Shown: one piece after another, positions 7,209 to 27,097 of the stretch | How the letters are laid out: each line of letters opens with the position of its first letter | Numbering within the stretch: the stretch's first letter is position 1 | NCBI GenBank assembly: GCA_016926395.1 | Contig: JAFGOT010000033.1 | Coordinates: forward strand, 1-28,716 | DNA length: 28,716 nucleotides | Source: Candidatus Woesearchaeota archaeon | GTDB lineage: Archaea; Nanobdellota; Nanobdellia; Woesearchaeales; SKGA01 | Reading direction: 5' to 3' | Translations under genes and position numbers: made by a program | The notes under the pieces: generated by a model | Database searches by the model: none | Seen by the model: only the letters and a program-made list of their open reading frames with translations | What the model was told of the DNA's origin: nothing

Positions 7209-7757
7209 ATGTTATACACAGTAGATCAACAAAAATTAGTGTTAGCAGTAGCAGAAGAGTTAAAAAACCATATCGAAATGCCAGAATGGGCTTTATTCGT
7301 TAAAACTGGTTCTCACAGAGAAACTCTTCCAAGAAATGCTGACTGGTGGTACATCAGAGCAGCTTCTGTATTACGTTACTGTAATATGAAAGGTCCTGTT
7401 GGTGTAAGTAAACTGCGAACCAAATATGGTGGACGAAAAAATCGAGGAATGGCTCCAGATAAATTCGCTCTAGCATCTGGTAAAGTTATTAGAGTAATTC
7501 TCCAACAACTTGAAGCAGCTAAACTTCTAAAACAAGACGTAGTAGGCACTCACAAAGGACGAGTCGCAACTCCAACTGGAGCCGCAATTCTTGTTAAAGC
7601 AGCAAAATCTTTAGGAAACGAAAAATCTGCAAAAGTAGCAACAAAAGCAACAACAAAAAAAGCAGAAAAAGTTGAAAATAAAACAGAAGAATCTGTTGAA
7701 GTCAAAGAAGAAACTAAAGTTGAACAAGCAGCTAAAGAACCTAAAAAAGGTGAATAA
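7209..7757 (+). CDS. rps19e: 30S ribosomal protein S19e with charged C-terminal tail
   Basis: PEWALFVKTGSHRE, WWYIRAASVLR, GPVGVSKLRTKYGGRKNRG, ILQQLEAAKL. Confidence 0.97.
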   Translation: MLYTVDQQKLVLAVAEELKNHIEMPEWALFVKTGSHRETLPRNADWWYIRAASVLRYCNMKGPVGVSKLRTKYGGRKNRGMAPDKFALASGKVIRVILQQLEAAKLLKQDVVGTHKGRVATPTGAAILVKAAKSLGNEKSAKVATKATTKKAEKVENKTEESVEVKEETKVEQAAKEPKKGE

Positions 7758-7933: not shown

Positions 7934-7942
7934 GTGAAAGAA

Positions 7943-8461
7943 ATGGCAAAAGAAACTATAAAACGATCCTACACAGTTCCTCTTAGAACTAAGTTTGCAA
8001 ACACTCCACGTTACAAACGGACTAACAAAGCTGTTCGTGTACTAAAAGAATTTTTAGTTAAACACATGAAAAGTGATAATGTAAAAATCGGTCCTAAACT
8101 AAACGAAACTCTATGGCAAGACGGCATAAAAAACCCTCCTGGTAAAGTCAAAATTGTAGCTACAAAAGATGACACTGGAATGGTTAGAGCTGAACTTGAA
8201 GGAGTTGAGTATGTTGACTTTAAAGTTCAAGAGAAAAAAGCAGATCCTACAACCCTAAAGGAAAAAATTGAAGCTAAACTTGACGGCGATAACAAAAAGA
8301 AACCTGTTAAGAAAGCAGACAAACAAGAATCTGAAAAACAGCCTGCTGTTAAAGAAACTGAAAAACCTGAAGAAAAAGTAGAAAAAGCTGAAACTAAAGC
8401 TCCTAAAAAAGAAGCAAAAGAAGAAGCACCTGCTAAATCTGAAGAACCTAAAGCTGAGTAA
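7943..8461 (+). CDS. rpl31e: 50S ribosomal protein L31e with long K/E/A/P-rich tail
   Basis: YTVPLR...PRYKRTNKAVRVLKEFLVKHMK...LNETLWQDGIKNPPGKVKI; AGGTGA SD before ATG 7943. Confidence 0.96.
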   Translation: MAKETIKRSYTVPLRTKFANTPRYKRTNKAVRVLKEFLVKHMKSDNVKIGPKLNETLWQDGIKNPPGKVKIVATKDDTGMVRAELEGVEYVDFKVQEKKADPTTLKEKIEAKLDGDNKKKPVKKADKQESEKQPAVKETEKPEEKVEKAETKAPKKEAKEEAPAKSEEPKAE

Positions 8462-8548
8462 AATCAGCTATTTTTTATTTTTTTATATATTTCTCAACCG
8501 ATTCTAAATAAATAAGATTTATAAACAACATCCACAGATATAGTTAGT

Positions 8549-9406
8549 ATGGCAATAATTACAAACATAGAACACGAACTGTTAATATCACTATATATTG
8601 CCACCACAATAATAATTTTCTCAATCGCACTAGATAGAGTTTTAAGATTCATAATAAACAGAAAAATAGAGAAAAGCGAAAGAGATCAAAAAGGTAACAA
8701 AACAAAATATCAATTTATCAAAAATTCTCTTACTGCATTAATCTATATTGTTGGAATTTCATTAGCAATCTATAACATCCCTCAACTTCGAGCAGTGTCA
8801 GTTTCATTACTTGCAGGAGCAGGTGTTATGGCAGTTGCAATTGGTTTTGCATCTCAACACGCATTATCTAACATCATTAGCGGAGTATTTATAGTTATTT
8901 TCAAACCATTTAAGATAGGGGATAGAATTAAAGTGGGGGCAGATGACCCTGGAATTGTTGAAGACATAACTTTACGACACACAGTAATAAGAACTTTTGA
9001 GAATAAACGAATTGTAATACCTAATTCAATCATAAGCGAAGAAAGAATAGAAAACTCTCAACTAGTAGATGATAAAGTTTGTAAATTTATAGAGTTTGGA
9101 ATTAGTTATGATTCTAATGTTGATTTAGCTAAATTAATCATGGAAGAAGAAGCATTAAAACACCCTTATTGTATTGATAACAGAACCATCGAAGAAAAAG
9201 AACAAGGTAAAAAACAAGTAGAAGTTAAATTAATTAGTTTTGGAGATTCATCAGTAAATCTAAGAGCATGGGTTTGGACTGAAAATCCAGGCAACGCATT
9301 TGATTTAGGTTGTGACCTTAACGAATCAATAAAGAAAAGATTTGATAAAGAAGATATAGAAATTCCATTCCCCTACAGAACAATTGTTTACAAGGATAAA
9401 AAATAG
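8549..9406 (+). CDS. mscS: Small-conductance mechanosensitive channel
   Basis: GFASQHALSNIISGVFIVIFKPFKIGDRI, VEDITLRHTVIRTFENKRIVIPNS, IEIPFP. Confidence 0.93.
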   Translation: MAIITNIEHELLISLYIATTIIIFSIALDRVLRFIINRKIEKSERDQKGNKTKYQFIKNSLTALIYIVGISLAIYNIPQLRAVSVSLLAGAGVMAVAIGFASQHALSNIISGVFIVIFKPFKIGDRIKVGADDPGIVEDITLRHTVIRTFENKRIVIPNSIISEERIENSQLVDDKVCKFIEFGISYDSNVDLAKLIMEEEALKHPYCIDNRTIEEKEQGKKQVEVKLISFGDSSVNLRAWVWTENPGNAFDLGCDLNESIKKRFDKEDIEIPFPYRTIVYKDKK

Positions 9407-9459
9407 TTTAAACAAGATTAAATAATAAAAAAATATTTTCAAACATATTTTCAAAGGAA

Positions 9460-10506
9460 ATGAAACATCACAAACACGCAAACAGAAAAATCGGACTTGC
9501 ACCAGGAACATTAGTTTATACAGGAACAGAAAAAGATTCTAAAGGAACAATTAGATTAATTGAATATAACAAAGATATCTACACTGAGAAAGAAAATGCT
9601 TCTGCTAAAGACATTCAACCAAACAACAATGTTAATTGGATTAATATAATAGGAATACATGATTTAGATTTAATTAACGCGGTGAGTGATAAATTTGAAC
9701 TACACCCCTTAGTTAGAGAAGATGTTGTTAGCACAAATCAACGATTAAAAATTGAGTCATACCCCGATTATATTTTTACAACACTAAAAAGCATCGAATA
9801 TAACGATAAAAGAATAGATTTTAAACAAATAAGTATAGTTCTTGGTAAAAATTATATAATCACATTTCTTGAAGAAGAAACTGAATGTTTAGAATACGTA
9901 AAAAAACGAATTGAAAACAAAAACGGAAGAATTCGAGAAAGAAAAGAAGATTATCTTCTTTATGCTTTAATTGATGCAATTGTGGATAGTTATTTTGTTA
10001 CACTAGAAAAAATAGGTGATGATCTTGAAGCATTAGATGAATCAATAATTCAAGAAGCTAATGAAGATAATTTTTATAAAATTCGTCAATTAAAAAAAGA
10101 GCTTACTTTCCTTAGAAAAACAATTTGGCCTCTAAGAGAGATTGCTAACTTTTTAGATAAAGAAGAACATAAATTCATAACTGAACAAACAAAAATGTTT
10201 GTTAAAGATTTATATGACCACACAATTCAAGTAATCGATCTAACAGAAACATACAGAGATTTAGTTGCGGGAAGTATAGACACTTATAATTCAGTTGTTG
10301 CAAACAGAATGAATGAAGTTATGAAAATATTAACAATCATATCAACCATTTTTATTCCAATAACATTTATTGCAGGAATATATGGTATGAATTTTGCCCA
10401 CATGCCTGAGCTTGCTTGGAAATGGAGCTATCTTGGAGTGTGGATAATTATTGTTTTAATAGTATTATTTATGATTCGGTTTTTTAGAAAAAAATCTTGG
10501 CTATAA
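9460..10506 (+). CDS. corA: Magnesium/cobalt transporter CorA
   Basis: GLAPGTLVYTG, LHPLVREDV...QRLKIE, YGMNF signature, MPELAWKWSY. Confidence 0.95.
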   Translation: MKHHKHANRKIGLAPGTLVYTGTEKDSKGTIRLIEYNKDIYTEKENASAKDIQPNNNVNWINIIGIHDLDLINAVSDKFELHPLVREDVVSTNQRLKIESYPDYIFTTLKSIEYNDKRIDFKQISIVLGKNYIITFLEEETECLEYVKKRIENKNGRIRERKEDYLLYALIDAIVDSYFVTLEKIGDDLEALDESIIQEANEDNFYKIRQLKKELTFLRKTIWPLREIANFLDKEEHKFITEQTKMFVKDLYDHTIQVIDLTETYRDLVAGSIDTYNSVVANRMNEVMKILTIISTIFIPITFIAGIYGMNFAHMPELAWKWSYLGVWIIIVLIVLFMIRFFRKKSWL

Positions 10507-10545
10507 AACAAAGATTTAAAAAACAAATTAACTCCAAAAAAAGGT

Positions 10546-11571
10546 ATGAGCAATGTTTATTTTATTCCAACTTCTAGTTTATACCAAACTACAGTAGCGG
10601 CTGAAAGATTATTAAAAACAGTTATTGAAAAAGAAAATATCCTGCTTGAACATGAAATTCCATTAAAAGTTCATTTTGGTGAGAAGGGCAACGAAACATA
10701 CATTCATCAAGAACAACTTATCAAATTAATTGATTTTCTAAAACTTCAAAATATTAAATCAGAATATATTGAAACAAACGTCCTATATCGTGGAGAACGT
10801 ATGAAAAGAGAACCACACATTAAATTAGCTAAAGAACATGGATTTACAGCCCTCCCAATAAACATTGCAGATGGAGAACAAGGAGAAGCAACAACAGAAC
10901 ACACAATTCATCAAAAGCACATTAAAGTTGCAAAACTAGCCTCGGGTTACGACAACTACAATCAAGTCATTGTTATTAGTCATTTCAAAGGCCACATGAT
11001 GGCAGGGTTTGGAGGGGCATTAAAACAATTATCAATGGGTTTTGCTTCACGTGCAGGAAAACTAGACATGCATGCTCACGCACACCCATTCTTAAATCCT
11101 ATTTCTTGCAAGAAATGTAACACTTGTAAAAACCATTGTCCAGTTGATGCGATTCACATAGGGTTTTACTCCAGAATAGATCCAAAAAAATGTATTGGTT
11201 GCGCTCAATGTATTGCTAATTGTCCATATGGAGTTATTAATATTAATTGGATGAGCACCAAACCAAAAGTTTTCCGTGAAAAAATGGTCGAATATGCATA
11301 CGCAGCACACAAAGACAGAAAAAATATTTATATTTCATTTGTTACAAGCGTAACTCCTGACTGCGATTGTATGGGTAAAAAAATGAAACCAATAATCCCT
11401 GACATTGGTGTTCTTGCCTCCGCAGATCCTGTTGCACTTGACAAAGCATGTTATGATTTAGTAGCTGATAAAGGCAAAAAATTTAACGGCGTAGAACAAT
11501 TAGAATATGCTGAAAAAATTGGAATTGGAACTCAGAAATATATTCTTATTCAAATAGAAAATAAAGAATAA
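10546..11571 (+). CDS. DUF362 family Fe-S protein with a 2x[4Fe-4S] ferredoxin domain
   Basis: LKVHFGEKGN, HFKGHMMAGFGGALKQLSMG, CKKCNTCKNHCP, CIGCAQCIANCP, CDC, DPVALDKA. Confidence 0.88.
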   Translation: MSNVYFIPTSSLYQTTVAAERLLKTVIEKENILLEHEIPLKVHFGEKGNETYIHQEQLIKLIDFLKLQNIKSEYIETNVLYRGERMKREPHIKLAKEHGFTALPINIADGEQGEATTEHTIHQKHIKVAKLASGYDNYNQVIVISHFKGHMMAGFGGALKQLSMGFASRAGKLDMHAHAHPFLNPISCKKCNTCKNHCPVDAIHIGFYSRIDPKKCIGCAQCIANCPYGVININWMSTKPKVFREKMVEYAYAAHKDRKNIYISFVTSVTPDCDCMGKKMKPIIPDIGVLASADPVALDKACYDLVADKGKKFNGVEQLEYAEKIGIGTQKYILIQIENKE

Positions 11572-11588
11572 AAAAGATTTAGAAAAAT

Positions 11589-12164
11589 CTAAATCTGATA
11601 TTTTTTATCAACAGAAAGACCTTTTTCTAACAAGGATTCAGCAATAATCTTTTTTGATGAAGCTACAACATTAGAAACATATATTTTACTTCGATTAGTA
11701 TAAGCACTTATTTCTTTGTATGTTAGTCCTTCATTAAAATGCATCCTAAAAATATCTCTTTTTTCATCAGGAAGATTATCAACCTCCCTATTTATCAAAG
11801 CAACTAATTGAGAATTATCAGAATCATCTACTTGTGAATTTGGATCAACTAAATTTTCATCAAAACAATACTCGCAAGAAACACTTTGATTATATTTATT
11901 AATCATCAAATTTCGAGATTTCAATAAAAGTAACTTGTAAGAGTCATATTCATTCTCTTGATTAGCAATTTTTGATTTTCGAGAATCATCCAAGAAATAT
12001 AGAAAAGTATCTTGAATTACATCCAAAGTATCATCGTTAGATAAAGAAAGAGAAGAAGCAAGATTAGATAACTCTTCATGAAGATCTTCACCATAACGAT
12101 TGTAGAGCTTACTTATTGAATCAACACGTGATTTTGCATTTGTTTCGGTTATTAAAGAGGTCAT
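11589..12164 (-). CDS. ECF (sigma-70 family) sigma factor-like protein
   Basis: Region 2-like LYNRY...DDTLDVIQDTFLYF...KSRNLMINKY and region 4-like LPDEKRDIFRMHFNEGLTYKEIS; AGGAG SD at 12171-12175. Confidence 0.75.
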   Translation of the reverse strand: MTSLITETNAKSRVDSISKLYNRYGEDLHEELSNLASSLSLSNDDTLDVIQDTFLYFLDDSRKSKIANQENEYDSYKLLLLKSRNLMINKYNQSVSCEYCFDENLVDPNSQVDDSDNSQLVALINREVDNLPDEKRDIFRMHFNEGLTYKEISAYTNRSKIYVSNVVASSKKIIAESLLEKGLSVDKKYQI

Positions 12165-12262
12165 TTTATACTCCTAAACAGTGATTAATTTAAAAACTTT
12201 CCTTTAGAAAAAACAAAAAAAGCAAAAAAAAGCAAAAAAAACAATTATTAAATTTGGTCCAT

Positions 12263-15200
12263 TTAGAAAACCCAAGATAGCCAGTTAATGAATTTTTTCC
12301 AAGTCCCTGCACTCACACATTGATCATTTGCACAGATACCGCTTGCACACTCAAAGCCATTCTCACAAGTCAAGTCACCATCTTTAAATGGAACCATATA
12401 TCCACCAGTACCACAATATCTTGCGTCTTTTCTAACGCCAACATCAAAACATTTTCCATTAACTAAACAACCAGTACAGTCAATTTCTGATTTATCAAAT
12501 TCAAATTGTTCTTTTGGAGCTTTTTCTTCTTTAGTGCCACAATCTTGTGGACAAGTTTCAGGAGTTTCTCCTAATCCTTTGTTTTCATGAACAAAACAAA
12601 CACCATCACCACATCTTGGAGTTTCTTTACAACAAGTTAAAGATGAACTCCCACAATCTAGATTTGTGTATTTTGGGTTATGTCCACAACCACGCTCAGC
12701 ACTAGTGCACACATACCCCGCCAATTCACACTCTGAAAAACCAGATTTTTTATCATCATCGGAGTTTTTATCATCAACTATTTCTAATGGTGTGTTTGCA
12801 CAGATTATCATTATTGATTGATGCGTTATAGGTTTGTGAACTATTTTTCGTCCATAAAAATAGTAATTAGTTTCGTTTTGAGGACCCATGTTTGCAAGAG
12901 AAATTTTTCTTCCAGTGTTTATCGTGCCTTCATAACTTGGTGAAACATCATCATTAAATCCATCAAAGAAAAAATCCATTCCAGTGTCGCCATTCCAAGA
13001 ATAGCCTGAACCTGCAACAACATAATATCCATCACCAAATTTAATTAGAGTTGGTTCTGTTAAAGTTACTTCATCAGTACAATAACTAGGTGCTGGAAGT
13101 ACAGGTGCATCCAAAGGATTTGATACGCAAGCGTCATCCTTACAATCACACACAACAGGATCTACAAGAATGGAACCATCAGGACCACAAGTTGTTTCCA
13201 TCATATAAGGTCCTTGATCAGTAGGTTCATCATAACTAGTTCCACAAAAATCAGCTTTCATCCCAACAACATCGCCTGTTTCTATGGAAGTAATTCTTGC
13301 CCACCCTCTTGTCATAATATCATCATTATCGCTGTTGTAACAAGTAGTTTCATCACGATAATAAAGAGGAAGATTAGTTGCAAATCCAGCAGCATTTGGT
13401 TTTCCATCATTAACGTAATTATATTCTATATCAAGCCTGTAACTTCCTGAAACAAAATTACTTGGAATATCAATGTTAAAACCAAAATGTTGCTCATTAA
13501 TACAACTTGGACAAACAGGTACGTAAAAATTTCTAGTCTCATTTGCAAGTCCTTCTAAAACAAAGTCAATTCCAGTTAATTGAAAATCATTTGTTGGCGC
13601 TGTAGTTTTTACATAAACATCAACTGGAAAACTAGTCATGTCATGATCCAATAATAAATGATCTTGACCATATATTTTTACATCGAATTTAACAATAGGA
13701 TTTTCTACAACAACTGCGTTACAATCAATATCAGACATGTCAGCAGTTGCAACAGTCAAAGTATTTTGAACTGAGTTGTAATAAGATACTTTTAATTCAT
13801 CTCCTTCTTGACAAACTAGACTATAACCTGTGTGAACCGAACCACCAAGCCAATCCGTATTAAAATCAACTGGTTGATTATCAATATACACATCACTATA
13901 TATCATAAAAGTATCAAATTTAATCATACCATCTTCTACTCTTAAGTTATTAATCTCAGGACCTTCAACAACATTAGGGTCCTCATTTATTGCATTGCCA
14001 TCAATATATATAGTCACCCGATTGTAATTGTTATTCTGTCCTGCATAAAGTATTGAATCAACATAGAAAGTATAGTTAGTTCCTGGAACAACAAAATATT
14101 CACAAGCTTCAACATCAAAAGATTCGCTTCCCGAACCAGAATAAACATTGAACGTCGCGTCCTCTTTACTATCAACAGATTCTAATTCTAATTCAAAACC
14201 ATTTACTAAAGTTACTTCTTGACTTTCTCTAAATTCTAATTTTTCTTTATCACCAGAGTAATAACAGTTTCGAATATCTTGAGTACCTTCTTTAACTGCA
14301 ACAGTCGCTTGTTCATCACCTTCATGGCCTAAATATAAGACTTCATCACCATTAGCAGAGTCGAATTCAAATTCTTCACAATAATCAACGTATTGAACAT
14401 CTCCACCTAAATTAACTTTAATAGTATCATCTTCAAAGTCAAAAACTTGAAGCCAAGTTCCATAAACATCGTCTTCAACTTCACCAGGAGTTAAAGTATA
14501 AACTGTATAATCATCTTCATCCTAACTTGGAAAATCAGACAAATCGCAATTAACAGGGACATTAGTATCTTCAAAAATTAATGCTGCTTGATTTTCAGGA
14601 CAACCTTCTTGATAAGCAACGTCAACAAGAGAAACTTTGTAATCATTTGCATCTTCAAAGATTTCGTAGTCGCCTTTAGATATTACTTTTGTTTGTCCAG
14701 CAACATCAATTATGGCTGCATCAAATCCAACACGAACTAAAGTTATATCTCGACCATCATAAACCATCTCGTCTCCTTCTGTTGCAACAACAACGTCAGA
14801 GTTGTAAGTATTATCATCAAGAGATGGACATTCAGGTTGGACTTCATATAGACATTCATAAACTGGTTTTGTAGAAGAGTAAGATTTTAGGTTTCCTCTA
14901 TCTTTCCGGTCACCAATTAATTCATCTCCAATATATTTTACATCAACAGTGTGAGGATAGAATTTTTTACAATAATTTATTCTTAGAGCATCAGTTGCTC
15001 CAAGTTCTGCACCAGAAACACCATCAAGATCAGTGAACCAAATATCTTTTGCCATATCGTAATGTTGATTTACTTTTCCTTGCCAAAAAGAAACTTTTGG
15101 AACTTTTTCCCCATAATTTGGAGCACCCCAACCATCTTGAGGATTAGTTATTTCTTCACAAAAAAATCGTACTTCATAGTCGGAACAATAACCGCCATTT

Positions 15201-15562
15201 TGTTCAGCGTTGACACACCAACAACCAGTTTTAGTAGTTGCATGAACTAACTCTCCTGTTAAATTCCAAGGCATATAATCTGTTTTTCGTCTACATTCAA
15301 TATTTAGTGGTTGTTCTCCACCACAAATAGTTTCAGCTCCAAAACCATTTATATCCTCATAATCACCCGCACCACTTGGATTATCTCTATCAAGCCAAGT
15401 AGTCCAAGCGCCACTTGTTTCAAAATTTACAGAAACAACATTGCCAGTTATTTTACCTGAAAAAACATCGCCTAAAAAGCCAGCACTAACAACACTAAGA
15501 CTTACAATGAACATAAACAATACCACAAAACTAAGAATGAATTTTTTCACCATATTACACAC
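12263..15562 (-). pseudogene. About 1099-codon Cys-rich surface protein gene interrupted by one in-frame TAG at 14522-14524 (nonsense allele, sequencing error or readthrough)
   Basis: ORFs 14522..15562 and 12263..14017 share a frame. The 168 codons between them are open and protein-like (DEDDYTVYTLTPGEVEDDVYGTWLQVFDF...) and contain no start codon before GTG 14017. Confidence 0.8.
15158..15406 (-). other. Mucin-2/CILP-type WxxW domain within the surface protein
   Basis: WTTWLDRDNPSGAGDYE...ICGGEQPLNIECR...GCWCVNAEQNGGYCSDYEVRFFC matches the Mucin2_WxxW pattern as I recall it. Confidence 0.8.
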
Positions 15563-15622
15563 CTTAAATATACAAAGTATATGAAAAAATAGGAAAAAAT
15601 CATATTTAAATGTTTCTTAAAC

Positions 15623-16372
15623 TCAATGAAGTAAAAGTATAAAGTAAAAGAAAAAAACAATCGTAATCATAAATATCGTTGATTCCTTCCAAAGTGTTTC
15701 CCGCCCATGTTTATGTAAACTTGGAACAAGGTCTGATAAAGCAATGTAAATAAAACCACCAGCTGCAATCAATACTGCAAAAGGAGCAACTCCTTGAATA
15801 GCATCTAATGCAAAATAACCTAAAACTCCACCAAGCACTGCACTAAGAGCAGAATAAAAATTAAGCATCAAAGCTTTTATTTTTGAATAACCACTATGAA
15901 TAAGAACTGCAAAATCTCCAAATTCTTGAGGAATCTCATGAATTAAAACAGTAAGTGTTGTAAAGATTCCAGTTATAGGATTTATTAAAAATGCACCTGC
16001 AATTAAAAGTCCATCAATAAAATTATGAACAAAATCACCATATAAAACAAGAGAACCTGAAGCCGATTTTCTCTCACAATCCCCATGTTCACGCCCACAA
16101 TGATGCCAATGAATAAATCGCTCAACTAAAAAAAAGAGTAATATTCCCAAAAGAACAAATCCCATCAATTCATGACTGTGAAATCCTGCACTTTCAAGTC
16201 CCTCAAGACTTTCAGGAATCATATCAAAAAAAGCTACTGCTAAAAGTGTCGCAGCTGCAAAAGTTACAAAATAATGTAATTTTTTCTCTATATGTTTTGA
16301 ACCAAGAATAACACCAACAAAGCTAGTTAAACTAACTAAAATCGTTGCAATTATTATATAGAGTAAAATCAT
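15623..16372 (-). CDS. ZIP family zinc/metal transporter
   Basis: AAATLLAVAFFDMIPES, HWHHCGREHG loop, GDFVHNFIDG, HEIPQEFGDF; likely start ATG 16372. Confidence 0.93.
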   Translation of the reverse strand: MILLYIIIATILVSLTSFVGVILGSKHIEKKLHYFVTFAAATLLAVAFFDMIPESLEGLESAGFHSHELMGFVLLGILLFFLVERFIHWHHCGREHGDCERKSASGSLVLYGDFVHNFIDGLLIAGAFLINPITGIFTTLTVLIHEIPQEFGDFAVLIHSGYSKIKALMLNFYSALSAVLGGVLGYFALDAIQGVAPFAVLIAAGGFIYIALSDLVPSLHKHGRETLWKESTIFMITIVFFFYFILLLH

Positions 16373-16491
16373 AGCGTTAAGGAAAGAATAATTCATTTAA
16401 AAAGGCTTCTTTGTTGTGAAACAAGAAAAAGTGGTTAAAAAAAGCGAAAAAAGGAATAAACTTTATAAATAAAGGGAATTTTTTACCATGT

Positions 16492-16932
16492 ATGAGTGGT
16501 AGTTTAAGAAAAATAGCACAATATGTAATGGTACCTGTATTGCTAACCAGTCTTAGTTCTCATTCCTTCGTTCAAGAACCAGATAAAAGAGTTCTAAACA
16601 CAATCGATAGATTAATTGAAGAAGGATACAATCCACTACCATGTACCAGTCCAGAATGTGCAACTCATTTATGGAAAAAAACTGCAGATGGAAATTATGC
16701 AAATGTCCATCAAATCGATTCAACACCATACTTTGCAGAAGTAATAAACCAAAGCAACATTGCTGCAAACAAAAAATCAGGCGGTGTAGCTCAAATGTTA
16801 AGTCAATTTCCTGAAACAACATTAGACGAAATTGATACTAACGATGATTTCAAAATCACTAATTCTGAAATACTAGCATATAGAAGAAAACTTATAGAAG
16901 AAATAGAAAATAAAAAAAGAAAAAATCTATGA
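16492..16932 (+). CDS. Exported protein with a single EF-hand-like loop
   Basis: N-terminal hydrophobic stretch; DTNDDFKITNSE fits the DxNxDxxIxxxE loop; TTTATAAA at 16462-16469. Confidence 0.6.
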   Translation: MSGSLRKIAQYVMVPVLLTSLSSHSFVQEPDKRVLNTIDRLIEEGYNPLPCTSPECATHLWKKTADGNYANVHQIDSTPYFAEVINQSNIAANKKSGGVAQMLSQFPETTLDEIDTNDDFKITNSEILAYRRKLIEEIENKKRKNL

Positions 16933-19900
16933 AACATAGATTACTGGTTTTTTTGTTTCCAAACCTAAATCATTACCAAGTGCAGTCAATGAAGGTAAGA
17001 CATAAGTATATCCTCCTCTAAATCGGGAAGTGTCCCCATTGTAACAATTTAATTCAGGATCTTCTGTTGCCATTAAACTTACAAAGTGTTGTTCTCCGGA
17101 ATTTGCACCTGAATAACCAAAACCAGCTTCTTTTAACGTAGCATATTCATCCTCTGTTAAAAAATACCTAGAATCAATTGTTTCAAATAAAGGTATTTCT
17201 TTACCACCAAGCTCATCAACCACAACAGTTAATTGATCGGTTAGTAAATCACTAGCACCTAAATATTTAGTAGCCAAATCCATTCCTTGAGAAACTTCAC
17301 TGAACAATTTAGTTGAAGCTAACTTAAATCTTGGGTAGATTGTAACAGCCATATAATTTGAAACTAAAACATTCTTCTCAACAGTACTTAAGTCAGGATA
17401 TTTAGAATTTAATTCAGCCATTATTTCTGCATTAATATCTTCTTGAATTGTTCGTTCAGTTAAGATGTTCGGTTTCTTTTCCCCAGTAACATCATCAACA
17501 ACAGAATAAGGTCTACCTTCAAAGTCCAAATCAATAATTAGTGAACCATCGTCGAATACATCACTTTGTATCCAAACTTGAGCTGCGACATCATAAGGAT
17601 AATAAGTTTCCATATCAACAGCAGACAGTTTATCTGGTCGCATCAGAGAAGCTAAAATAGAGTCTCTAAAGTCAGGGAATAAAGTTTTCTCATCCTTTGT
17701 CAATCTATCAAATTCAGATTCCCAGTTAGATCGTTCAGTGTTTAAGTTAGGCGTATTAATACTAGATAAGTTAAGTCCGCCTATTTTAGATTCATCAGTT
17801 ACAACTGCACCTCTAAACCATGCAGAACCACCATAGTAAAAAGGATTTGAAACAACCCAATAATCAGATATTTTTTCATTCCAATCAGATCTAGGTCTTA
17901 AATCTAGAATTTCATAACCAGTTTGTAGATATAAAAGAGAGTTTGGTTGATTGTATTTTCCACCAAGTTCATTTCCTTTAACCATACTAGTTCTCATTCC
18001 AGTAAAATATTCTGAAGTTAACTTAAAATTTAATATACCATCTTCTAAGATTTTTTTGCCTTTAATTGGTTGAACAAAACTTCCAACATCAACATCAACA
18101 TCAGGAGTACTAGATCCGTCAATTTTTCCTTTAGTTTCTTTTGACGCCAATTTAGAATTTAAAGCATCCAAATCATAAACGTATCTCAATCTTAAAGTTG
18201 AAGATGCTGAAAAAGTATTAGTTTCTCCACCACCTTCTTTTTTATCAAACTTATCAACAATTTCAAATCTCACCAAAGCATCTTTGTAAAAAGCAGTTGC
18301 TTTTCGATCAACTTTATTAACCAAAGTGGTTGAAGCATCCAGACCAGGTACTTCAACTTCACAGATGTATAAATCAAGAGGTTTAATACCATCCACATTC
18401 AAAAACATTTGGAAATCGTCTTCAGAGTAAACATCTCCTTTTGATGCTTTTTTACATTCTGTAAAACCTGATTTTTTATAATCAGTTGGAGTTCCAAAAG
18501 AAACAACTTTTCCAGGAGTGTATGATAACTCAAAACTACCAGAACCAGTAGATATAGCGCTATATGTTCCTGAACTTTTCTTTGCTCTTTTCTCTTTAAG
18601 TTTTTCAGAGAAAGATTGATATGGACAGTAAGATTCAAACTTGTTAAATTTTAAACCAGGAAGTTCCAGTTTTATTTTCAATTTAGGATCTCTTTCAAAA
18701 ACTGTTGAACCAACAACATTTTCAATACATCCATCAACCGCTAAATCAATTAAAGTTGCTTCAACAAAAACAGGCTCACTTGAAGCTACTAAAACAGTAG
18801 CTTTTTTCGAATTACCATCAGCCAAAACAGGAATAATATTTGATTGTGTTGAGAAATCTGATTTTAAAGCAGAAGACCACCATTCAAACACACCGTCTTT
18901 CATTGATTTAATTTTAACACGATCATTAACAGAGTTTAAGAAAGCAACATCTGACTGTTTTATTGCAGAGAATAAAATCATTGGTCTTGATTCTTCTAAT
19001 GATTTAGATACAGGAACTAAATCTGCAGCACCTCTAAAATTCTGTTGATTCATAACAGTTGATAAAGGATCACCTAACAATCTAAACTTATTATCGTAAC
19101 GACTTTGAGCTCGTTCTAATAAGGTGTCTGCTTCACAAGATCCTCCAGAAATACAAGATTCCAATCTAGACTCAGAAGGGACCCATTTTATATAATTTCC
19201 AAATAAAACAGATGGAAGTTCACCAGTTTTAAGGTTTGTTTCATAAGGTCGTCTTAGAACTCTTAAGAAAAATTGGCCTTGATTAGATTTAATAGAATTC
19301 TCAGAAGAAGAAATATAAATTCCTCGAGAACCTTCTCTTAAATATCTAAGCGCTAAAGGCGGTTCGTTAGAGTCAAAATCTAAAAGATTAGCATTAGTTT
19401 CAAAAAACATCAAGTTATTTTTAGATTTTTCATCAACACCTAAAGTAGGCATTCCTTTCAAACCACCATCAACATCTTTATCGCCAAGATAATAAAAAAT
19501 ATCATAATTCATGTAATTAAATTCTGTTTTAGTACAATCAGAAGATTTAGATATTTCTTGTTGAGGAAGGGAAATTAAATATTTATCTTTACCATCAACG
19601 GTTTCTTTTGTTACTCTTGGAGATTCTTTAATAGATACTTCAAAATCAACACGTCGATTAAGTCTCATCAAAACTTCTTTTCTAAGATAATCACAAGTAG
19701 CATCTGAAAAATCATCATCCAAAAGTTTACATTTGTCCCAAACAGAATCAATATAATCTTGAGTTAACTCATGAGGTTCAAAAGTTAATTTATTAGGAAC
19801 AATATAATCAGATAAATATAAGTCTATATCTTCTTGGGTTAAGTTACGTGGTTTTTCTTCACCATTAGCTTCAGAAACAATAGTTCCTGAGAAACCATAA

Positions 19901-22119
19901 TCCTTTAGTAGTTTTTCAACAGCATTTGCTCTTCTTTGAGACAAATCTTTGTTATATTCATTAGTTCCATCAGCATCAGTATTTGCAGATAATTTTATAC
20001 TAATCAAATTACTAGTTCCTAATTGTTTTTCTAAAGAATTCCAATCATCAACAAGTTTTTTAAGTTGTCTACTTGAGACATCAAGAACTTTATCTTTATC
20101 ATAATCAAATTGAATATCCATTGAAAAAGCATCTAAGTACGGAAGTCCTTCGCTATTCTTTATGTTCTTTGAATCTTCTTCTTTTGAATATATTTGAATA
20201 CTGTTAGATTTAGCATTACAAATTTGTTCTATGAACATAGGTGTTATGGAAATAGGATCAGAAGGTAATCTTTGATCACCAGCAAAATTACTTAAGTCTT
20301 GCCATACAAACGGATCAGTAAATCTAAAATCAGAAGAAGTTGTTGTAGCTAGACCAACACTTAATTTTTGTTTCACATTATTATCATAAAAACGACCATA
20401 AACCAAACCATCATCATTTGCAAGATTAGAATCAGTATATCTGGAATGAAGGTATCCATTAAAGAAACTTTTAGTAACAAGAGCAGCTGTATCTCCAGGA
20501 GTCAAACCAGTTAACCATCCAACTCGAGTAATATCCCAAAACAATTCTTGTTTATCAGCTAAATTTTTGTAAGATTTATCTGCTAATAAATAAGGTTCAG
20601 TGGTTATTTGAAAAAACTGATCATTATAAAAAAATGGAACAGTATAAGGATTTCCAATAACACTTACAAATATTTCCTTAGAATCTTTTATATTATCCTC
20701 TTGTCTAAATATTTTTTGTTGCCAGAAAAGATTTCTTAATGAATTAATTAAAACATTAGATTTACCCTTAAGACCAAAAAACGAATATGTCAAATCAGAG
20801 TTTAAGCTATTTTCTTTGGAAACATCCGCTAAAAAAATACCGAGATCTTCATTAAAATTACTTACAACCAAATCTGCATCTCCTCTAAGAGGCATTAAGA
20901 TTCCACCTCTAACAGCTGCAAAATATGGAACTACTAAAGAATCTCTACAAAAAGTAGAAGGCGCTTTAGATAGTCCAGATGTTTCTTTTAAGTATTCAGA
21001 ATATTTAGTTGAACAAAAACCATCAATATCTTTTGGGTTATAAACTATCAAGTGATCATCAATTCTTTGTTTTACATCACCAGGGTTTAAAGGAGTAGCA
21101 TATTTTCTTTTGTAGCTTAAAAGTTTAGTTTGAAATGAATATAACTTTGCAGCATTAGTATTCAATTCAAAAATAGATTGCTCCATGAATTGACTTGGAT
21201 ATTTGTTAGTGCCTTTGTATTTTTCCTGTATATTTCTAAAATTTGTTGTGAAATTCGCGGCATCAGAAGAAGGATAAAGTTGAGTTAAAGAACTTGCCTG
21301 ATCATTTACAACAGTTATTATCTTAACATTAGGAGTTCGATCAGCATAAGTTGGTAAAAAATAAGCATAGTTTCCAAAATATAAACGTTCATTTGAGGAA
21401 ACAAAACGATCAACACCATCAATTAATAAAGGAGCATTCAAAGTTGATGCAATTGTAGAAGCAATTATAGCTGCATCGTAATTATTTTCTGAAACAACTA
21501 ATAATAAATTTTGAGATGGAGTGTTAGTGGATCCTGAATTTTTAGTTGCCCATCTATTAATGTAATCAGAATTGTCCATACAATAAACAGATTCATTCTT
21601 ATAAGACGCAAAGAAACTTTGCTTGTTTTTAGATTCATCACAAAAAGAGTTTTTCCCAAAAGCCAAAACAGCATCATAAAGTCCATTCTCTAACAATTTT
21701 CTAATAGGATAGTAATCTCCCTCATGAACAACACCAAAACCCTCATAATCTGAGATTCTCAAAGAACCCTCGCCAGAAGAAGGACGATATAATTGGATGT
21801 TAGTAGCTAAAGTGGTTGCTTTTAAAACCGATTGCCAATCACTAGAATCTGCAATAATAAGAAGTCTTTTCCCAGAAAGATCTTCATCATAACCCTTCCA
21901 TGAAAAAGTGTTTTGATTATTTAGAAAAGAAGTTCTCGCTTCCTCATCAGCAAACCATTTTAAATCAGGGGTTTGATAATCGGGAGTTGACACAACGCCT
22001 TGAGAATTTATATTATCTAAACCTGCTTCAAAATCAGATTCAGTTAAAGCAAAGGTTAAACCCGCTGTTAAAATCACAAACACTAATCCTAAAAATACCA
22101 ACTTATTATTTACCATCAT
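16927..22119 (-). CDS. 1730-aa secreted multidomain protein: CWB2-like repeats, C25 peptidase-like scaffold and inserted OmpA-like domain
   Basis: Signal peptide; NYDAAIIASTIASTLNAPLL; IGNPYTVPF, RVGWLTG, LLGDP; NTDADGTNEYNKDLSQRRANAV...NGEEKP...NRRVDF; AGGAGA SD. Confidence 0.8.
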   Translation of the reverse strand: MMVNNKLVFLGLVFVILTAGLTFALTESDFEAGLDNINSQGVVSTPDYQTPDLKWFADEEARTSFLNNQNTFSWKGYDEDLSGKRLLIIADSSDWQSVLKATTLATNIQLYRPSSGEGSLRISDYEGFGVVHEGDYYPIRKLLENGLYDAVLAFGKNSFCDESKNKQSFFASYKNESVYCMDNSDYINRWATKNSGSTNTPSQNLLLVVSENNYDAAIIASTIASTLNAPLLIDGVDRFVSSNERLYFGNYAYFLPTYADRTPNVKIITVVNDQASSLTQLYPSSDAANFTTNFRNIQEKYKGTNKYPSQFMEQSIFELNTNAAKLYSFQTKLLSYKRKYATPLNPGDVKQRIDDHLIVYNPKDIDGFCSTKYSEYLKETSGLSKAPSTFCRDSLVVPYFAAVRGGILMPLRGDADLVVSNFNEDLGIFLADVSKENSLNSDLTYSFFGLKGKSNVLINSLRNLFWQQKIFRQEDNIKDSKEIFVSVIGNPYTVPFFYNDQFFQITTEPYLLADKSYKNLADKQELFWDITRVGWLTGLTPGDTAALVTKSFFNGYLHSRYTDSNLANDDGLVYGRFYDNNVKQKLSVGLATTTSSDFRFTDPFVWQDLSNFAGDQRLPSDPISITPMFIEQICNAKSNSIQIYSKEEDSKNIKNSEGLPYLDAFSMDIQFDYDKDKVLDVSSRQLKKLVDDWNSLEKQLGTSNLISIKLSANTDADGTNEYNKDLSQRRANAVEKLLKDYGFSGTIVSEANGEEKPRNLTQEDIDLYLSDYIVPNKLTFEPHELTQDYIDSVWDKCKLLDDDFSDATCDYLRKEVLMRLNRRVDFEVSIKESPRVTKETVDGKDKYLISLPQQEISKSSDCTKTEFNYMNYDIFYYLGDKDVDGGLKGMPTLGVDEKSKNNLMFFETNANLLDFDSNEPPLALRYLREGSRGIYISSSENSIKSNQGQFFLRVLRRPYETNLKTGELPSVLFGNYIKWVPSESRLESCISGGSCEADTLLERAQSRYDNKFRLLGDPLSTVMNQQNFRGAADLVPVSKSLEESRPMILFSAIKQSDVAFLNSVNDRVKIKSMKDGVFEWWSSALKSDFSTQSNIIPVLADGNSKKATVLVASSEPVFVEATLIDLAVDGCIENVVGSTVFERDPKLKIKLELPGLKFNKFESYCPYQSFSEKLKEKRAKKSSGTYSAISTGSGSFELSYTPGKVVSFGTPTDYKKSGFTECKKASKGDVYSEDDFQMFLNVDGIKPLDLYICEVEVPGLDASTTLVNKVDRKATAFYKDALVRFEIVDKFDKKEGGGETNTFSASSTLRLRYVYDLDALNSKLASKETKGKIDGSSTPDVDVDVGSFVQPIKGKKILEDGILNFKLTSEYFTGMRTSMVKGNELGGKYNQPNSLLYLQTGYEILDLRPRSDWNEKISDYWVVSNPFYYGGSAWFRGAVVTDESKIGGLNLSSINTPNLNTERSNWESEFDRLTKDEKTLFPDFRDSILASLMRPDKLSAVDMETYYPYDVAAQVWIQSDVFDDGSLIIDLDFEGRPYSVVDDVTGEKKPNILTERTIQEDINAEIMAELNSKYPDLSTVEKNVLVSNYMAVTIYPRFKLASTKLFSEVSQGMDLATKYLGASDLLTDQLTVVVDELGGKEIPLFETIDSRYFLTEDEYATLKEAGFGYSGANSGEQHFVSLMATEDPELNCYNGDTSRFRGGYTYVLPSLTALGNDLGLETKKPVIYVS
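19630..20121 (-). other. OmpA-like (OmpA C-terminal / Pal / MotB) peptidoglycan-binding domain, about aa 667-830
   Basis: IQFDYDK, xTDxxG, YNxxLSxRRAxAV, GEEKP and NRRV motifs all present and in the correct order. Confidence 0.85.
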
Positions 22120-22135
22120 AATATCTCCTTAATTA

Positions 22136-22900
22136 TTAACTTGAAAATAAACCATGAAATGAGAACACATAAGATAACTGTTCATTCTCCAATTCATTCA
22201 AATAAAATACCAAATCGCCATCTCTTTCAGGAGTTATCATGTAGACAAACCCTCTTTGAGTAGCATAACTAACACCCGGTTCGTAAAAAAAATCATAAGG
22301 TTGAATAGGATTTAACAATAAATCAATTGTATGATATATTGAACCTATATTAGAAGCAAAAGTATAACTAACAGGGCCTTGAGTTTGGGTAGCGCCTGTT
22401 GAATCAGTTAAAGTAGCATGAGTATCAACCGTTACAGTAATCTCTCCTTCTTCAACAAAAGTCTTTAAATCAACCAAACTATCATCATAAATTAAATCGC
22501 CTTCTAAATATTTTGAAAATATTTCAAATCCATCTATACAACTAATAACCTCATCACGATAATCTTGTGCATATCTATCTTGAAGTTCCTGTTTCGTTGG
22601 TAACGTTGAAAGTCCACTAAAATAGAAATAAGGAATATTTTCTCGAATCATATTTTTATTTTGAAGATAGAAATGATTTGCTAAAACAGAAGTAGGAGTC
22701 TCTTTGAAAGTAGATTCTAAACAACTTTTTGTATATGTTTCTAAACTCCTTGGCGTTACAGAACCATCAGCAGACAATAAACTCGTATCAAAATCTTGAA
22801 CACCTTGCCGTTCAGATGTAAAATAGAAGACTGCTAGAACTCCTACAAGTATTGCAATTCCAACAATAACTAACATAGTAATTTGACCTTTCTGACTCAC
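22136..22900 (-). CDS. Class III signal peptide (archaeal type IV pilin-like) protein, 254 aa
   Basis: MSQKG|QITMLVIVGIAILVGVLAVFYF; TATA at 22935-22942; 16 nt from the next gene. Confidence 0.75.
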   Translation of the reverse strand: MSQKGQITMLVIVGIAILVGVLAVFYFTSERQGVQDFDTSLLSADGSVTPRSLETYTKSCLESTFKETPTSVLANHFYLQNKNMIRENIPYFYFSGLSTLPTKQELQDRYAQDYRDEVISCIDGFEIFSKYLEGDLIYDDSLVDLKTFVEEGEITVTVDTHATLTDSTGATQTQGPVSYTFASNIGSIYHTIDLLLNPIQPYDFFYEPGVSYATQRGFVYMITPERDGDLVFYLNELENEQLSYVFSFHGLFSS

Positions 22901-22949
22901 ACTAACTCACAAGGTTAAAAACTAAAGAAAATGGTTTATAAATGTTTGC

Positions 22950-24535: not shown

Positions 24536-25252
24536 TTAGAGTATTGCTAAATCATCCTTTGAAACACTATCACGTTCGTTTTCAACAGCATGCCGGAAAA
24601 CATCTTCCATGTTTTCTAAGAATCGTCTTGTGTTTTTGAAAGATTTTTCGTAAACAGATTTAATTAGATCATCGGTTATGAATTCATCATTACCATCCAA
24701 TCTACTTCTTGCAAGTTCAACTGCAGATTTTACATCTAAAGGTTTCAATTGAATTATATTTTTTCCAATTCGTTCTTTTAGATTTGCAGAAATTCTTGAT
24801 TCTTCTAATGATTTGTCAATGAACAAAACAGAACCAATATACCCTTCATCAAAATAATATTCAATTTGTCGGCAATCTTCAGCATTTATTTTTGCAGTTT
24901 CATCCACAATTAATAATACGTTTTTTGCTTTCACACCAAATACTTTTTTTAATCCAGTACTAGCACCTTTTAGAAGAGACGAGTAATTGAATGCTCTATC
25001 ATTTCTATTTCTAGAAATGTATATTACTTTTTTTCGTCCAGAGAATTCATTAATTAAATATCTTAGAATAGTTGTTTTTCCAAGGCCAAAATCTCCTTCT
25101 AAAAAATACATTTCATCTTCAGTTAAAGAGTCAACTAATTTATCCACTTCTTTATCATAACCAACTACTTCGTCATCGAAGAAACCTGGTTTTATTGTAA
25201 AGGGATTGTATGCGTACCCTAATTTTTCGTACCATAAAAGTTCTTTAGGCAT
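24536..25252 (-). CDS. ExeA/GspA-like P-loop ATPase (paralog 2), 238 aa
   Basis: WYEKLGYAYNPF, Walker A GDFGLGKT, Walker B LLIVDE; true start ATG 25252 with GGTGA SD, overlapping the upstream stop. Confidence 0.75.
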   Translation of the reverse strand: MPKELLWYEKLGYAYNPFTIKPGFFDDEVVGYDKEVDKLVDSLTEDEMYFLEGDFGLGKTTILRYLINEFSGRKKVIYISRNRNDRAFNYSSLLKGASTGLKKVFGVKAKNVLLIVDETAKINAEDCRQIEYYFDEGYIGSVLFIDKSLEESRISANLKERIGKNIIQLKPLDVKSAVELARSRLDGNDEFITDDLIKSVYEKSFKNTRRFLENMEDVFRHAVENERDSVSKDDLAIL

Positions 25253-26243
25253 TTGCTTCACCTTTCTTTGATTTTTTTGATTTGTTTTGTTTTGGCTCTT
25301 CTTCAACACTGCTTTCAAATTCTGCCTGACATTCAGGACAAGAAACATCGTCTTGTTTTACGATTGCACCGCAGTTTCCACAAAACATATCATAAACAGG
25401 ACACCGGTAATACTCACCAATTTTCATTAGTTTGTTTCCTTTACTATCCGTCATTTGTTCTTCAGCATCAATAACATCTGCTCCAAGAGAAATATAGTAA
25501 TCAGTTTCATCTTCTTCATCAAGTTTATCTTCTATTACTTTTAGATGAGCTTTTTCTATTTTTTCAGCTTCTTCAAAATCCATTTCTTCAAACACTCGAT
25601 GTAGATTTAGAAGGAATTGTTTTGGATTTTTTCCTGACTTTTCAAAGATTTCTTCTACTTGTGCTTTTGTAATAAGTGAGTCACTTTCATTTGGATCTTC
25701 ATCAAGTCTTGAGAATGCAAGTTCAACAGCTTGTTCTTTTGTTAAATGCTTTATTTTAATAATTCTTCGTCCAATTCTATTTAACATGCTTTCTGGGAAA
25801 CCAACTTTTTTAATTGATTCACTTGAGAAAATTACACTTTGTAAATACGCATTGTCAAAAAAGAATTTTAGTCGCTCTAGATTTACTTGAGATAATTCTG
25901 CAACATTATCAATTATTAAAATCATATGTTTTGGTTTTTTGTTAAAGACTTTTCCTTTAACACCATTTTTGTTCTGAAGTAGCTCTTCAACATTAAGATT
26001 TTTCTTTAATTTTGCTGCATTAACATAAATTATTCTTCCTTTGAAATTTTTTATGATTTCTTTTAAGAATTTAGTTTTGCCAGAACCTGCAGCTCCTTCA
26101 ACAAAAACCATTGACCCACTTCGAACATAATAAAGAACATCCTTTACTTCATCTTCCAAGCCAATAAGGTTTGTATTTTCATTTAAAGGATTAATCAGAA
26201 AAGGGTTTTCGTAGTAACCTAATTTTTTATACCATGTTTTCAT
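25245..26243 (-). CDS. ExeA/GspA-like P-loop ATPase (paralog 1) with C-terminal zinc ribbon
   Basis: WYKKLGYYENPF, Walker A GAAGSGKT, Walker B ILIIDN, CGNCG...CPEC. Confidence 0.75.
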   Translation of the reverse strand: MKTWYKKLGYYENPFLINPLNENTNLIGLEDEVKDVLYYVRSGSMVFVEGAAGSGKTKFLKEIIKNFKGRIIYVNAAKLKKNLNVEELLQNKNGVKGKVFNKKPKHMILIIDNVAELSQVNLERLKFFFDNAYLQSVIFSSESIKKVGFPESMLNRIGRRIIKIKHLTKEQAVELAFSRLDEDPNESDSLITKAQVEEIFEKSGKNPKQFLLNLHRVFEEMDFEEAEKIEKAHLKVIEDKLDEEDETDYYISLGADVIDAEEQMTDSKGNKLMKIGEYYRCPVYDMFCGNCGAIVKQDDVSCPECQAEFESSVEEEPKQNKSKKSKKGEANA

Positions 26244-26542: not shown

Positions 26543-27097
26543 TTACTCAGCTGCTGGTTTAATTTTTAAGTCTTCTTCAAACCAATCAACTTTTCCAAGT
26601 CCTGGTTGACGCATAGTCATACCAATCTTTGGGTTAGTAATATCTTTAAAGGACACTGCAACAATTTTTGCGAAACATTTGTCACCAACTTTTAATGTTC
26701 GTTTAGTTTCTTTTCCAGCTAGAACTTTTTCCTTACTAAAAGATACAAAGTCATTCATTGTTTGACCAATATGAACCATTCCTTCAACTGGACCAAGAGT
26801 GACGAATGCACCAAAATCAGTGATGTCTTTTACTTTACCAACAACTGTTTCTTGAAGTTCAGGTAAGTAAGCTAAAAGCTCAAACTTAGCTTTGTAAAAA
26901 GCAGCGCCATCTCCAGGAACAATAATTCCTTCTTCAACGCCAATTAAATCAATAACATCAATAACATATCCTAAATCTTTAGAAATATAACCTGCAAATT
27001 TTGCTTTAACTTGACCAATTACTGCCAAATCTAATTCTTTTGAGAATTCTGTTGGTGGAACTCTAATATAATCTTGTACTTGAACTGCGTAAAACAT
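26543..27097 (-). CDS. rpoE1: DNA-directed RNA polymerase subunit E' (Rpo7)
   Basis: DYIRVPP, GIIVPGDGAAFY, DITDFGAFVTLGPVEGMVHIGQ, KIGMTMRQPGLGK. Confidence 0.96.
   Translation of the reverse strand: MFYAVQVQDYIRVPPTEFSKELDLAVIGQVKAKFAGYISKDLGYVIDVIDLIGVEEGIIVPGDGAAFYKAKFELLAYLPELQETVVGKVKDITDFGAFVTLGPVEGMVHIGQTMNDFVSFSKEKVLAGKETKRTLKVGDKCFAKIVAVSFKDITNPKIGMTMRQPGLGKVDWFEEDLKIKPAAE

Follow-up and report, generated by a model that had tools for sequence, protein, structure and literature searches.

The window analysed here is a stretch of 28,716 nt from Candidatus Woesearchaeota archaeon (GCA_016926395.1, contig JAFGOT010000033.1, positions 1–28,716; lineage SKGA01). On its minus strand an open reading frame (ORF) encodes a protein that is an intact, strongly diverged homologue of the bacterial extracytoplasmic function (ECF, group 4) sigma-70 factors. 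Its coordinates and its length of 191 aa, read directly from the sequence, are those given in an initial annotation of the window. Among 5.8 billion clustered proteins one close relative was found (P0002, 69% identical), which has the same length and the same N-terminus. Its gene is on L015, a Logan contig of 4.6 kb (source SRR22535648) from an independent assembly, where the gene order MscS-CorA-DUF362-sigma is shared with the window and a TPR protein is encoded upstream instead. In the window, the downstream neighbour is the convergent DUF362 gene and the upstream neighbour encodes a 584-aa Cys-rich protein without a Pfam match. As had been annotated, no anti-sigma gene adjoins the sigma-like gene; a co-transcribed cognate anti-sigma factor is typical for ECF sigmas, although not strictly defining. 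The features of the gene and its surroundings are the following:

8462–22949: lineage-specific insertion of about 14.5 kb between L31e and rimK, from comparison with six same-genus genomes
12207–12242, minus strand: oligo-T tracts past the upstream gene (stop 12263–12265)
12189–12196, minus strand: TATA-like element TTTTTAAA, its last base 24 nt from the ATG, kept in L015
12171–12175, minus strand: AGGAG within the conserved CTGYTTAGGAGT, 6 nt ahead of the ATG
11589–12164, minus strand: sigma-like ORF, 191 aa, ATG 12164–12162, TAG 11591–11589
11865–12149, minus strand: predicted sigma2-like domain, aa 6–100, from AlphaFold helices, superposition on SigL and low pN/pS
11865–11876, minus strand: CxxC (C97, C100) closing the last predicted sigma2 helix, kept in L015
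11826–11864, minus strand: acidic sigma2/sigma4 linker, aa 101–113, the fastest-evolving segment
11625–11825, minus strand: sigma4 domain with helix-turn-helix, aa 114–180, from Pfam matches above cut-off and superposition on sigmaE; the recognition helix is at aa 160–180
11592–11624, minus strand: C-terminal tail KGLSVDKKYQI, aa 181–191, of low model confidence

Of the two Pfam models that the initial annotation led one to expect, PF08281 (Sigma70_r4_2) matched aa 126–165 with 28.3 bits against a cut-off of 25.7, and PF04542 (Sigma70_r2) gave no match in the protein even at E ≤ 10; a search with PF04542 across the whole genome likewise yielded zero matches. The related model PF04545 (Sigma70_r4) was also above its cut-off over the same residues (26.5 bits, cut-off 24.1). 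The best score for the whole protein was obtained with TIGR02985 (Sig70_bacteroi1), in which aa 18–177 aligned with positions 4–161 of 162 (48.4 bits, E 1.1e-12, curated cut-off 126.4 bits), followed by NF058625 (sigma_PG0214) with 46.6 bits, again below the cut-off. The ECF superfamily model TIGR02937 aligned from end to end (positions 3–163 of 165) with 34.5 bits against a cut-off of 42.9. The protein comprises two domains of four helices each, joined by a linker of about 13 aa, and no matches to sigma region 1 or region 3 were obtained. Because the curated ECF thresholds for region 2 and for the whole protein were not reached, it is filed as a diverged relative with ECF architecture, below threshold membership.

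A phmmer search against 1.84 billion representatives returned 202 proteins at E ≤ 1e-3, nearly all of them 165–220 aa long and aligned over their full length at 23–35% identity. The best E value outside the protein's own cluster was 3.5e-9, leaving aside one match summed over repeats (P0003), and the matches bearing names were Bacteroidota/Bacteroidales 'RNA polymerase sigma-70 factor' proteins. P0003, a protein of 3037 aa, reached 121 bits through the summing of fifteen stretches aligned on aa 68–106 and was judged to be an artefact and no relative. Each of these stretches carries a pattern like EYD..K...VSC.Y..D.NL, which is probably a chance similarity.

An AlphaFold2 model was calculated from an alignment (A1) of the query, its orthologue and 73 phmmer matches, with a mean predicted local distance difference test (pLDDT) score of 86. 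The model places helices at aa 7–38, 43–58, 60–67 and 72–100 in the first half of the protein, followed by a low-confidence linker (pLDDT of about 55) and four further helices within aa 114–180. Nearly all of the top Foldseek matches in the PDB were ECF sigmas, for example SigL (6dv9_F) and sigmaE (1or7). With VIA-align, residues 6–96 of the model superposed on the sigma2 domain of SigL (6tyg_F) with Z 10.5 and an rmsd of 2.3 Å over 82 aa; residues 115–184 of the model superposed on region 4 of sigmaE with −35 DNA (2h27_D) with Z 10.8 and 1.5 Å over 69 aa. Middling Z scores of this kind are easily reached by helical folds. A single-sequence search of the PDB sequences was also made, and it gave weak and partly spurious matches (NleB, TFAM), the fold search being more informative. 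The region 2-like and region 4-like segments described in the initial annotation were thus both recovered, region 4 by Pfam and region 2 by the sub-threshold ECF alignments together with the AlphaFold fold. The sigma2 fold, whose absence the annotation had regarded as fatal to its proposal, is present in the model.

The most constrained surface of the protein is the equivalent of region 2.1/2.2. There, 25 of the 26 positions of the block SLSLS.DDTLDVIQDTFLYFLDDSRK are the same in both lineages, the exception being N43/D, and 31% of all positions differ between the window and L015 proteins. The DTLD motif pointed out in the initial annotation was located at aa 45–48, at the position of the family consensus (d)AED. 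Positions typical of ECF sigmas are mostly retained in sigma2 (D48, Q51, D52, F54, Y76, L79, N85, N89) and in sigma4 (L131, P132, R136, F139, G146, L147, Y149, E151, I152, V163, N165, K172), and those altered with respect to the nearest homologues are W58 to L, T162 to Y or V, Q166 to V or I and R175 to A. The recognition helix (YVSNVVASSKK) has indeed diverged from the GTVKSRL with which it had been compared; the nearest family, however, reads TVenQi..A.K, so that the helix is less aberrant than was claimed. C97 and C100 are the sole cysteines of the protein, and a CxxC is lacking in all of the 73 nearest homologues. The C-terminal tail, KGLSVDKKY(Q/R)I, is nearly the same in both lineages.

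Nonsynonymous (dN) and synonymous (dS) divergence between the window and L015 was calculated by the Nei-Gojobori method. For the sigma-like gene dN was 0.208, dS 0.965 and dN/dS 0.215; the corresponding values were 0.117, 1.113 and 0.105 for CorA, 0.044, 0.897 and 0.049 for DUF362, and 0.052, 1.608 and 0.033 for MscS. Within the sigma-like gene the constraint was strongest over aa 43–100 (pN/pS 0.20), and the linker was the least constrained segment (pN/pS 1.1). Purifying selection acts on the gene, relaxed in comparison with that on its neighbours. Regarding its distribution, a query with the protein found nothing in 60 relatives, 13 of them of the same genus. A profile of the two orthologues gave only two matches in 400 genomes of the order, each of 23.6 bits and restricted to sigma4. 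No close relative was present in genome, viral or phage collections, and a metagenome scan gave a single match (L035) of 24% identity. The sporadic and decaying presence that was named beforehand as grounds for doubting the annotation applies in its first half, the gene not having been found in 13 congeners or in 399 other genomes of the order, and not in its second: both lineages have an intact copy, at a dN/dS of 0.21, and a decaying pseudogene was rejected on these grounds.

The TATA-like element and the AGGAG of the initial annotation were both found at the places it gave, and in L015 they are conserved with the same spacing as in the window. The TTTATAAA boxes of other window genes, including those inside the insertion, are found at the same distance from the start. 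If the spacing is the one usual in archaea, the transcription start would be about 2 nt ahead of the ATG, and the AGGAG may then fall upstream of it, outside the mRNA. The sequence CTGYTTAGGAGT between the TATA box and the ATG (window 12165–12200; L015 1190–1235) is conserved despite near-saturated synonymous sites. The usual spacing would place it ahead of the transcription start, so that it may function as an operator or promoter-proximal element and not as a Shine-Dalgarno site. The oligo-T tracts resemble an archaeal terminator and may act as one for the upstream gene.

The sigma-like gene lies on a genuine archaeal chromosome. The contig carries genes for S19e (7209–7757), L31e (7934–8461), an Lrp/AsnC regulator, ThyX and Rpo7/E' (26543–27097), and the genome (1.02 Mb in 40 contigs, 82.5% complete, 0.95% contamination) encodes both TFB and TBP. 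Neither a bacterial RNA polymerase alpha C-terminal domain (alpha-CTD) was found in this genome nor, within its 82.5% completeness, FecR or zf-HC2 domains. In six congeners (G001, G003, G004, G005, G008 and G013) the S19e-L31e operon directly adjoins a block of rimK, a retropepsin-like gene and two ATPase genes, with a gap of 100–166 nt between L31e and rimK in three of the six. In the window this position is occupied by the insertion, which encodes MscS, CorA, DUF362, the sigma-like protein, the 584-aa Cys-rich protein, a Mucin2_WxxW protein, a ZIP transporter, a 146-aa ORF, a 1730-aa OmpA-domain protein and a 254-aa ORF. An attempt to anchor the synteny on DUF362 was uninformative, as the congeners hold only 30–35% paralogues, and it was the S19e anchor that worked. 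GC content is uniform at 0.28–0.34 along the window. Neither a tRNA gene nor an integrase was detected in the window, its scans found no integrase, capsid or terminase genes in the insertion, and the borders of the insertion have no att-like repeats, the sole 10-mer that they share being the TATA motif. Bacterial contamination, which was put forward with the initial annotation as a possible refutation of it, was not borne out, because both flanks match archaea of the same genus and the genes of the insertion carry archaeal boxes of the TTTATAAA type.

Sigma genes are common in the order to which the archaeon belongs. TIGR02937 was above cut-off in 85 of 200 genomes, frequently in more than one copy and as tandem arrays. 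Four unpublished genomes (G128, G137, G147 and G198) are counted here, all of them positive; leaving them out gives 81 of 196. When the model was run on 14 control genomes it was above cut-off in only ten, which PF04542 confirms to be the bacterial ones. The sampled sigma genes of the order are of two kinds, canonical ECFs with regions 2 and 4 above cut-off, and RpoD-like proteins of 371–516 aa with regions 1.1/1.2, 2, 3 and 4. Genes of these kinds were seen in loci L005 (G056:C3), L009, L011 and L013 and also in L007, which is from G198 (L008 is from G128), and a tandem array with four TIGR02937 matches is located at G056:C3:16405-20160. Those sigma genes that were inspected sit amid archaeal housekeeping genes, and such prevalence in such surroundings indicates that proteins of this type do something in these cells. 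An anti-sigma gene was also looked for downstream of the canonical ECFs of the related archaea and was rejected there, the neighbours being RadA, a Ski2-like helicase, a MiaB-like enzyme, a nucleotidyltransferase and a PolB-exo-like protein. Within the genus, full-length ECF genes occur only in G010 and G012, and these have no detectable relation to the gene of the window.

The occurrence of sigma-70 genes (fam00359) in DPANN archaea has been reported, with the observations that they are 'particularly prevalent in Woesearchaeota', that mis-binning is excluded and that no anti-sigma factors were found (Castelle et al., 2021, Front Microbiol, PMC8204110). The novelty implied by the initial annotation does not hold, as woesearchaeal sigma-70 genes without an anti-sigma factor were published in 2021. 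For the same reason the copy described here does not open the question of sigma in archaea; it is an unusual new example of a published phenomenon, being diverged, orphan and borne on an island. With the published genes (PMC8204110) it shares a bacterial-type sigma homologue on a genuine DPANN chromosome, the lack of a detected anti-sigma factor and a cell that has TBP and TFB. It differs from them in being far more acidic and in its CxxC, which is unique to it. Canonical archaeal copies pass the region 2 model and TIGR02937 and the window protein fails both thresholds. It is also an orphan with respect to the other sigma genes of the order, none of which its profile detects beyond the two sigma4-only matches mentioned above.

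The Bacteroidota ECFs (TIGR02985, NF058625) provide both the best-scoring models and the best named homologues, and they resemble the window protein in length, in the two-domain layout and in the style of the recognition helix. FecI-like ECFs belong to modules of a sigma factor, FecR and a TonB-dependent transducer. The cluster of the top match (P0153) has such a sigma-FecR-SusC-like operon with both partners present, whereas neither FecR nor a TonB-dependent receptor is found beside the gene or elsewhere in the window genome. The window protein differs further in its score, which is far below the curated cut-off (48 against 126 bits), and in its archaeal host. With the structurally characterised ECFs, namely E. 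coli sigmaE (1or7, 2h27) and M. tuberculosis SigL and SigH (6dv9, 6tyg, 5zx2), the modelled sigma2 and sigma4 folds superpose and the linker is of comparable length; identity is 16–20%, and the bacterial core enzyme on which those sigmas act is not available in the archaeal cell, as no alpha-CTD was found. The ECF-like sigmas of phages (PHROG 1740, E 3.8e-11 over aa 7–188) are likewise stand-alone, diverged and without an anti-sigma partner; in contrast to these, the gene has no close viral relative that was found and its locus is without viral hallmark genes.

The best scores point to ECF sigmas of the Bacteroidota type, and the nearest Atlas structures are also from Bacteroidota. In a quick IQ-TREE phylogeny of 71 rows the window and L015 proteins joined with 99% support on a stem of 1.21, with no supported sister. 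The pair fell outside a clade of 40 rows, supported at 95%, that contains the matches named Bacteroidota, and it was part of a polytomy with three ECF genes of the order. As the tree does not support it, a Bacteroidota origin is suggested only as a lead from best scores, and the naming of a donor by phylogeny was abandoned because the position of the pair is not resolved in the tree.

Archaeal RNA polymerase (RNAP) initiates with TBP and TFB, and bacterial RNAP with sigma. The reading preferred here, with a probability of roughly 0.45, is that the protein is a sigma-derived transcription regulator exapted inside the archaeal cell and not a classical sigma factor. Bacterial sigma factors bind the core enzyme mainly through region 2.1/2.2, which grips the beta-prime clamp helices; the homologue of these helices in archaea is the clamp coiled-coil of Rpo1, where TFE and Spt5 bind. 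The sigma2 surface may accordingly dock on a protein partner, for which the Rpo1 clamp coiled-coil would be the best candidate because of this homology and because region 2.1/2.2 is the most constrained part of the protein. Once docked, the protein could compete with or modulate TFE, Spt5 or TFB, with the helix-turn-helix of sigma4 contacting DNA with changed specificity. Where sigma2 meets the linker, the lineage-specific CxxC could stand in for the missing anti-sigma factor through redox or metal control. In its complete form, with the sigma2 surface docked on the archaeal RNAP clamp and a bacterial module rewired as a regulator of the TBP/TFB polymerase with a CxxC redox or metal switch, this proposal is speculative and is considered rather unlikely. 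If true, it would mean that bacterial and archaeal initiation have been combined in a working hybrid system.

A number of observations weigh against a role as regulator of the archaeal polymerase. The gene is dispensable at the genus level, as it was found neither in the 13 congeners nor in the 399 other genomes of the order, and its dN/dS is 2–6 times that of its neighbours, that is, it evolves faster. With a pI of 4.8 and a net charge of −9 the protein is very acidic for a DNA binder. The charge of sigma2 (−5) is below that of all 73 homologues (median +2.9) and that of sigma4 (−2) is at about the 8th percentile, and the other nucleic-acid-binding proteins of the window are basic. A proteome-wide, halophile-like acidity was discarded as the cause, as the basic proteins include the Lrp-type regulator and the ribosomal proteins. 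The residues with which sigmaE contacts the bases of the −35 element, R171, S172, F175 and R176 (Lane and Darst, 2006, PMC1540707), correspond by superposition and by the shared GL(S/T)Y.EI motif to S164, N165, A168 and S169. A basic residue (R/K) at the position of R176 is present in only 38 of these 73 homologues, so that the change alone is not decisive. The acidic charge and the altered recognition helix speak against a classical −35 reading. The alignment behind the AlphaFold model was dominated by bacterial ECF sigmas. It should also be noted that the linker of ECF sigmas runs through both the active-site cleft and the RNA exit channel, a path like that of the B-reader of TFIIB (PMC6411747). 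By analogy, this path would clash with the B-reader of TFB on a TFB-using polymerase, and a protein following it would compete with TFB rather than add to it. Finally, we know of no experiment or complex model in which any protein of the sigma type is connected with an archaeal polymerase.

The main rival to an exapted regulator is that the gene is a dispensable import, acquired horizontally with or into a variable island, and is now either weakly constrained in some role that is small or conditional, such as that of a generic helix-turn-helix protein, or in slow loss, with no link to RNAP. Its restriction to two lineages, the absence of the insertion from six congeners, the raised dN/dS, the loss of recognition by the Pfam region 2 model with a TIGR02937 score below cut-off, and the patchy turnover of sigma genes in the genus (full-length ECFs only in G010 and G012, unrelated at a detectable level) are all consistent with this explanation. 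A dN/dS of 0.21 at a dS of about 1, however, represents long-lasting purifying selection, and the reading frame, the N-terminus, the C-terminal tail, the CxxC and the promoter have been conserved despite near-saturated synonymous sites. Such an import is a possible explanation, though on this evidence a somewhat unlikely one.

The remaining explanations are minor. An origin from a virus or mobile element, with the gene as a phage-type ECF-like sigma left by or part of an integrated element, is suggested by the match to PHROG 1740 (phage RNA polymerase sigma factor), by the location in an insertion and by language-model features, for which the nearest Atlas clusters are viral (Uroviricota) ECF-like clusters. 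These feature scores may reflect AT-rich composition, however, and searches of 50,697 INPHARED phage records (tblastn) and of IMG/VR contigs gave no relative; with no integrase, capsid, terminase, tRNA or att-like repeats in the insertion, a viral origin was set aside as improbable. About as improbable, by a narrow margin more so, is an effector or decoy delivered to or acting on the RNA polymerase of a bacterial partner, such as a Bacteroidota host or prey, whose transcription it would redirect or block. The best-scoring named relatives are indeed Bacteroidota ECF sigmas, and the insertion also encodes large secreted or adhesin-like proteins, one of them with an OmpA-type peptidoglycan-binding domain. 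On the other hand, neither the sequence nor the Pfam scans of the window gave evidence of a signal peptide or secretion-system gene, the key residues for −35 contact are changed, the proximity to genes for surface proteins is not conserved (the TPR protein being upstream in L015) and the tree gives no support to a Bacteroidota donor. The known hosts of DPANN archaea are also archaeal (PMC8204110). An artefact of assembly or binning, in which a bacterial fragment was mis-joined into an archaeal contig, might be considered for a protein of bacterial type in a bin only 82.5% complete, and it is effectively refuted. With archaeal markers on both sides and flanks colinear with six congeners it would need two compensating chimeric joins, and the independent Logan assembly shows the same gene order. 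The uniform GC content, the contamination of 0.95%, the archaeal-type promoters on the genes of the insertion and the exclusion of mis-binning for such genes by Castelle et al. (PMC8204110) also contradict it.

The presence of sigma genes under selection in many DPANN archaea hints that sigma modules are reusable on or beside the archaeal polymerase. The protein described here is a useful test case in this respect, being small and stand-alone, with a single orthologue and a clearly defined constrained surface, and its acidic charge and unique CxxC are easy to mutate. The copy also documents a route of arrival, namely a variable insertion of 14.5 kb beside a ribosomal-protein operon.

Some further features of the locus were observed. 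The Mucin2_WxxW protein of the insertion (14522–15562) is 346 aa in length, with the domain (PF13330) scoring 70 bits; this module is most familiar from animal mucins. The end of L037, from a same-genus genome, encodes a fragment with 43% identity to the protein. At 24536–26243 there are two paralogous STAND/AAA-type ATPase genes, about 30–35% identical to each other and overlapping by about 100 nt, and this pair was beside rimK in all six of the same-genus loci examined. The matches to S19e in two same-genus genomes, G009:C61:2659-3102 and G011:C31:88-519, each contain one in-frame TGA, located near the start of the S19e C-terminal extension.

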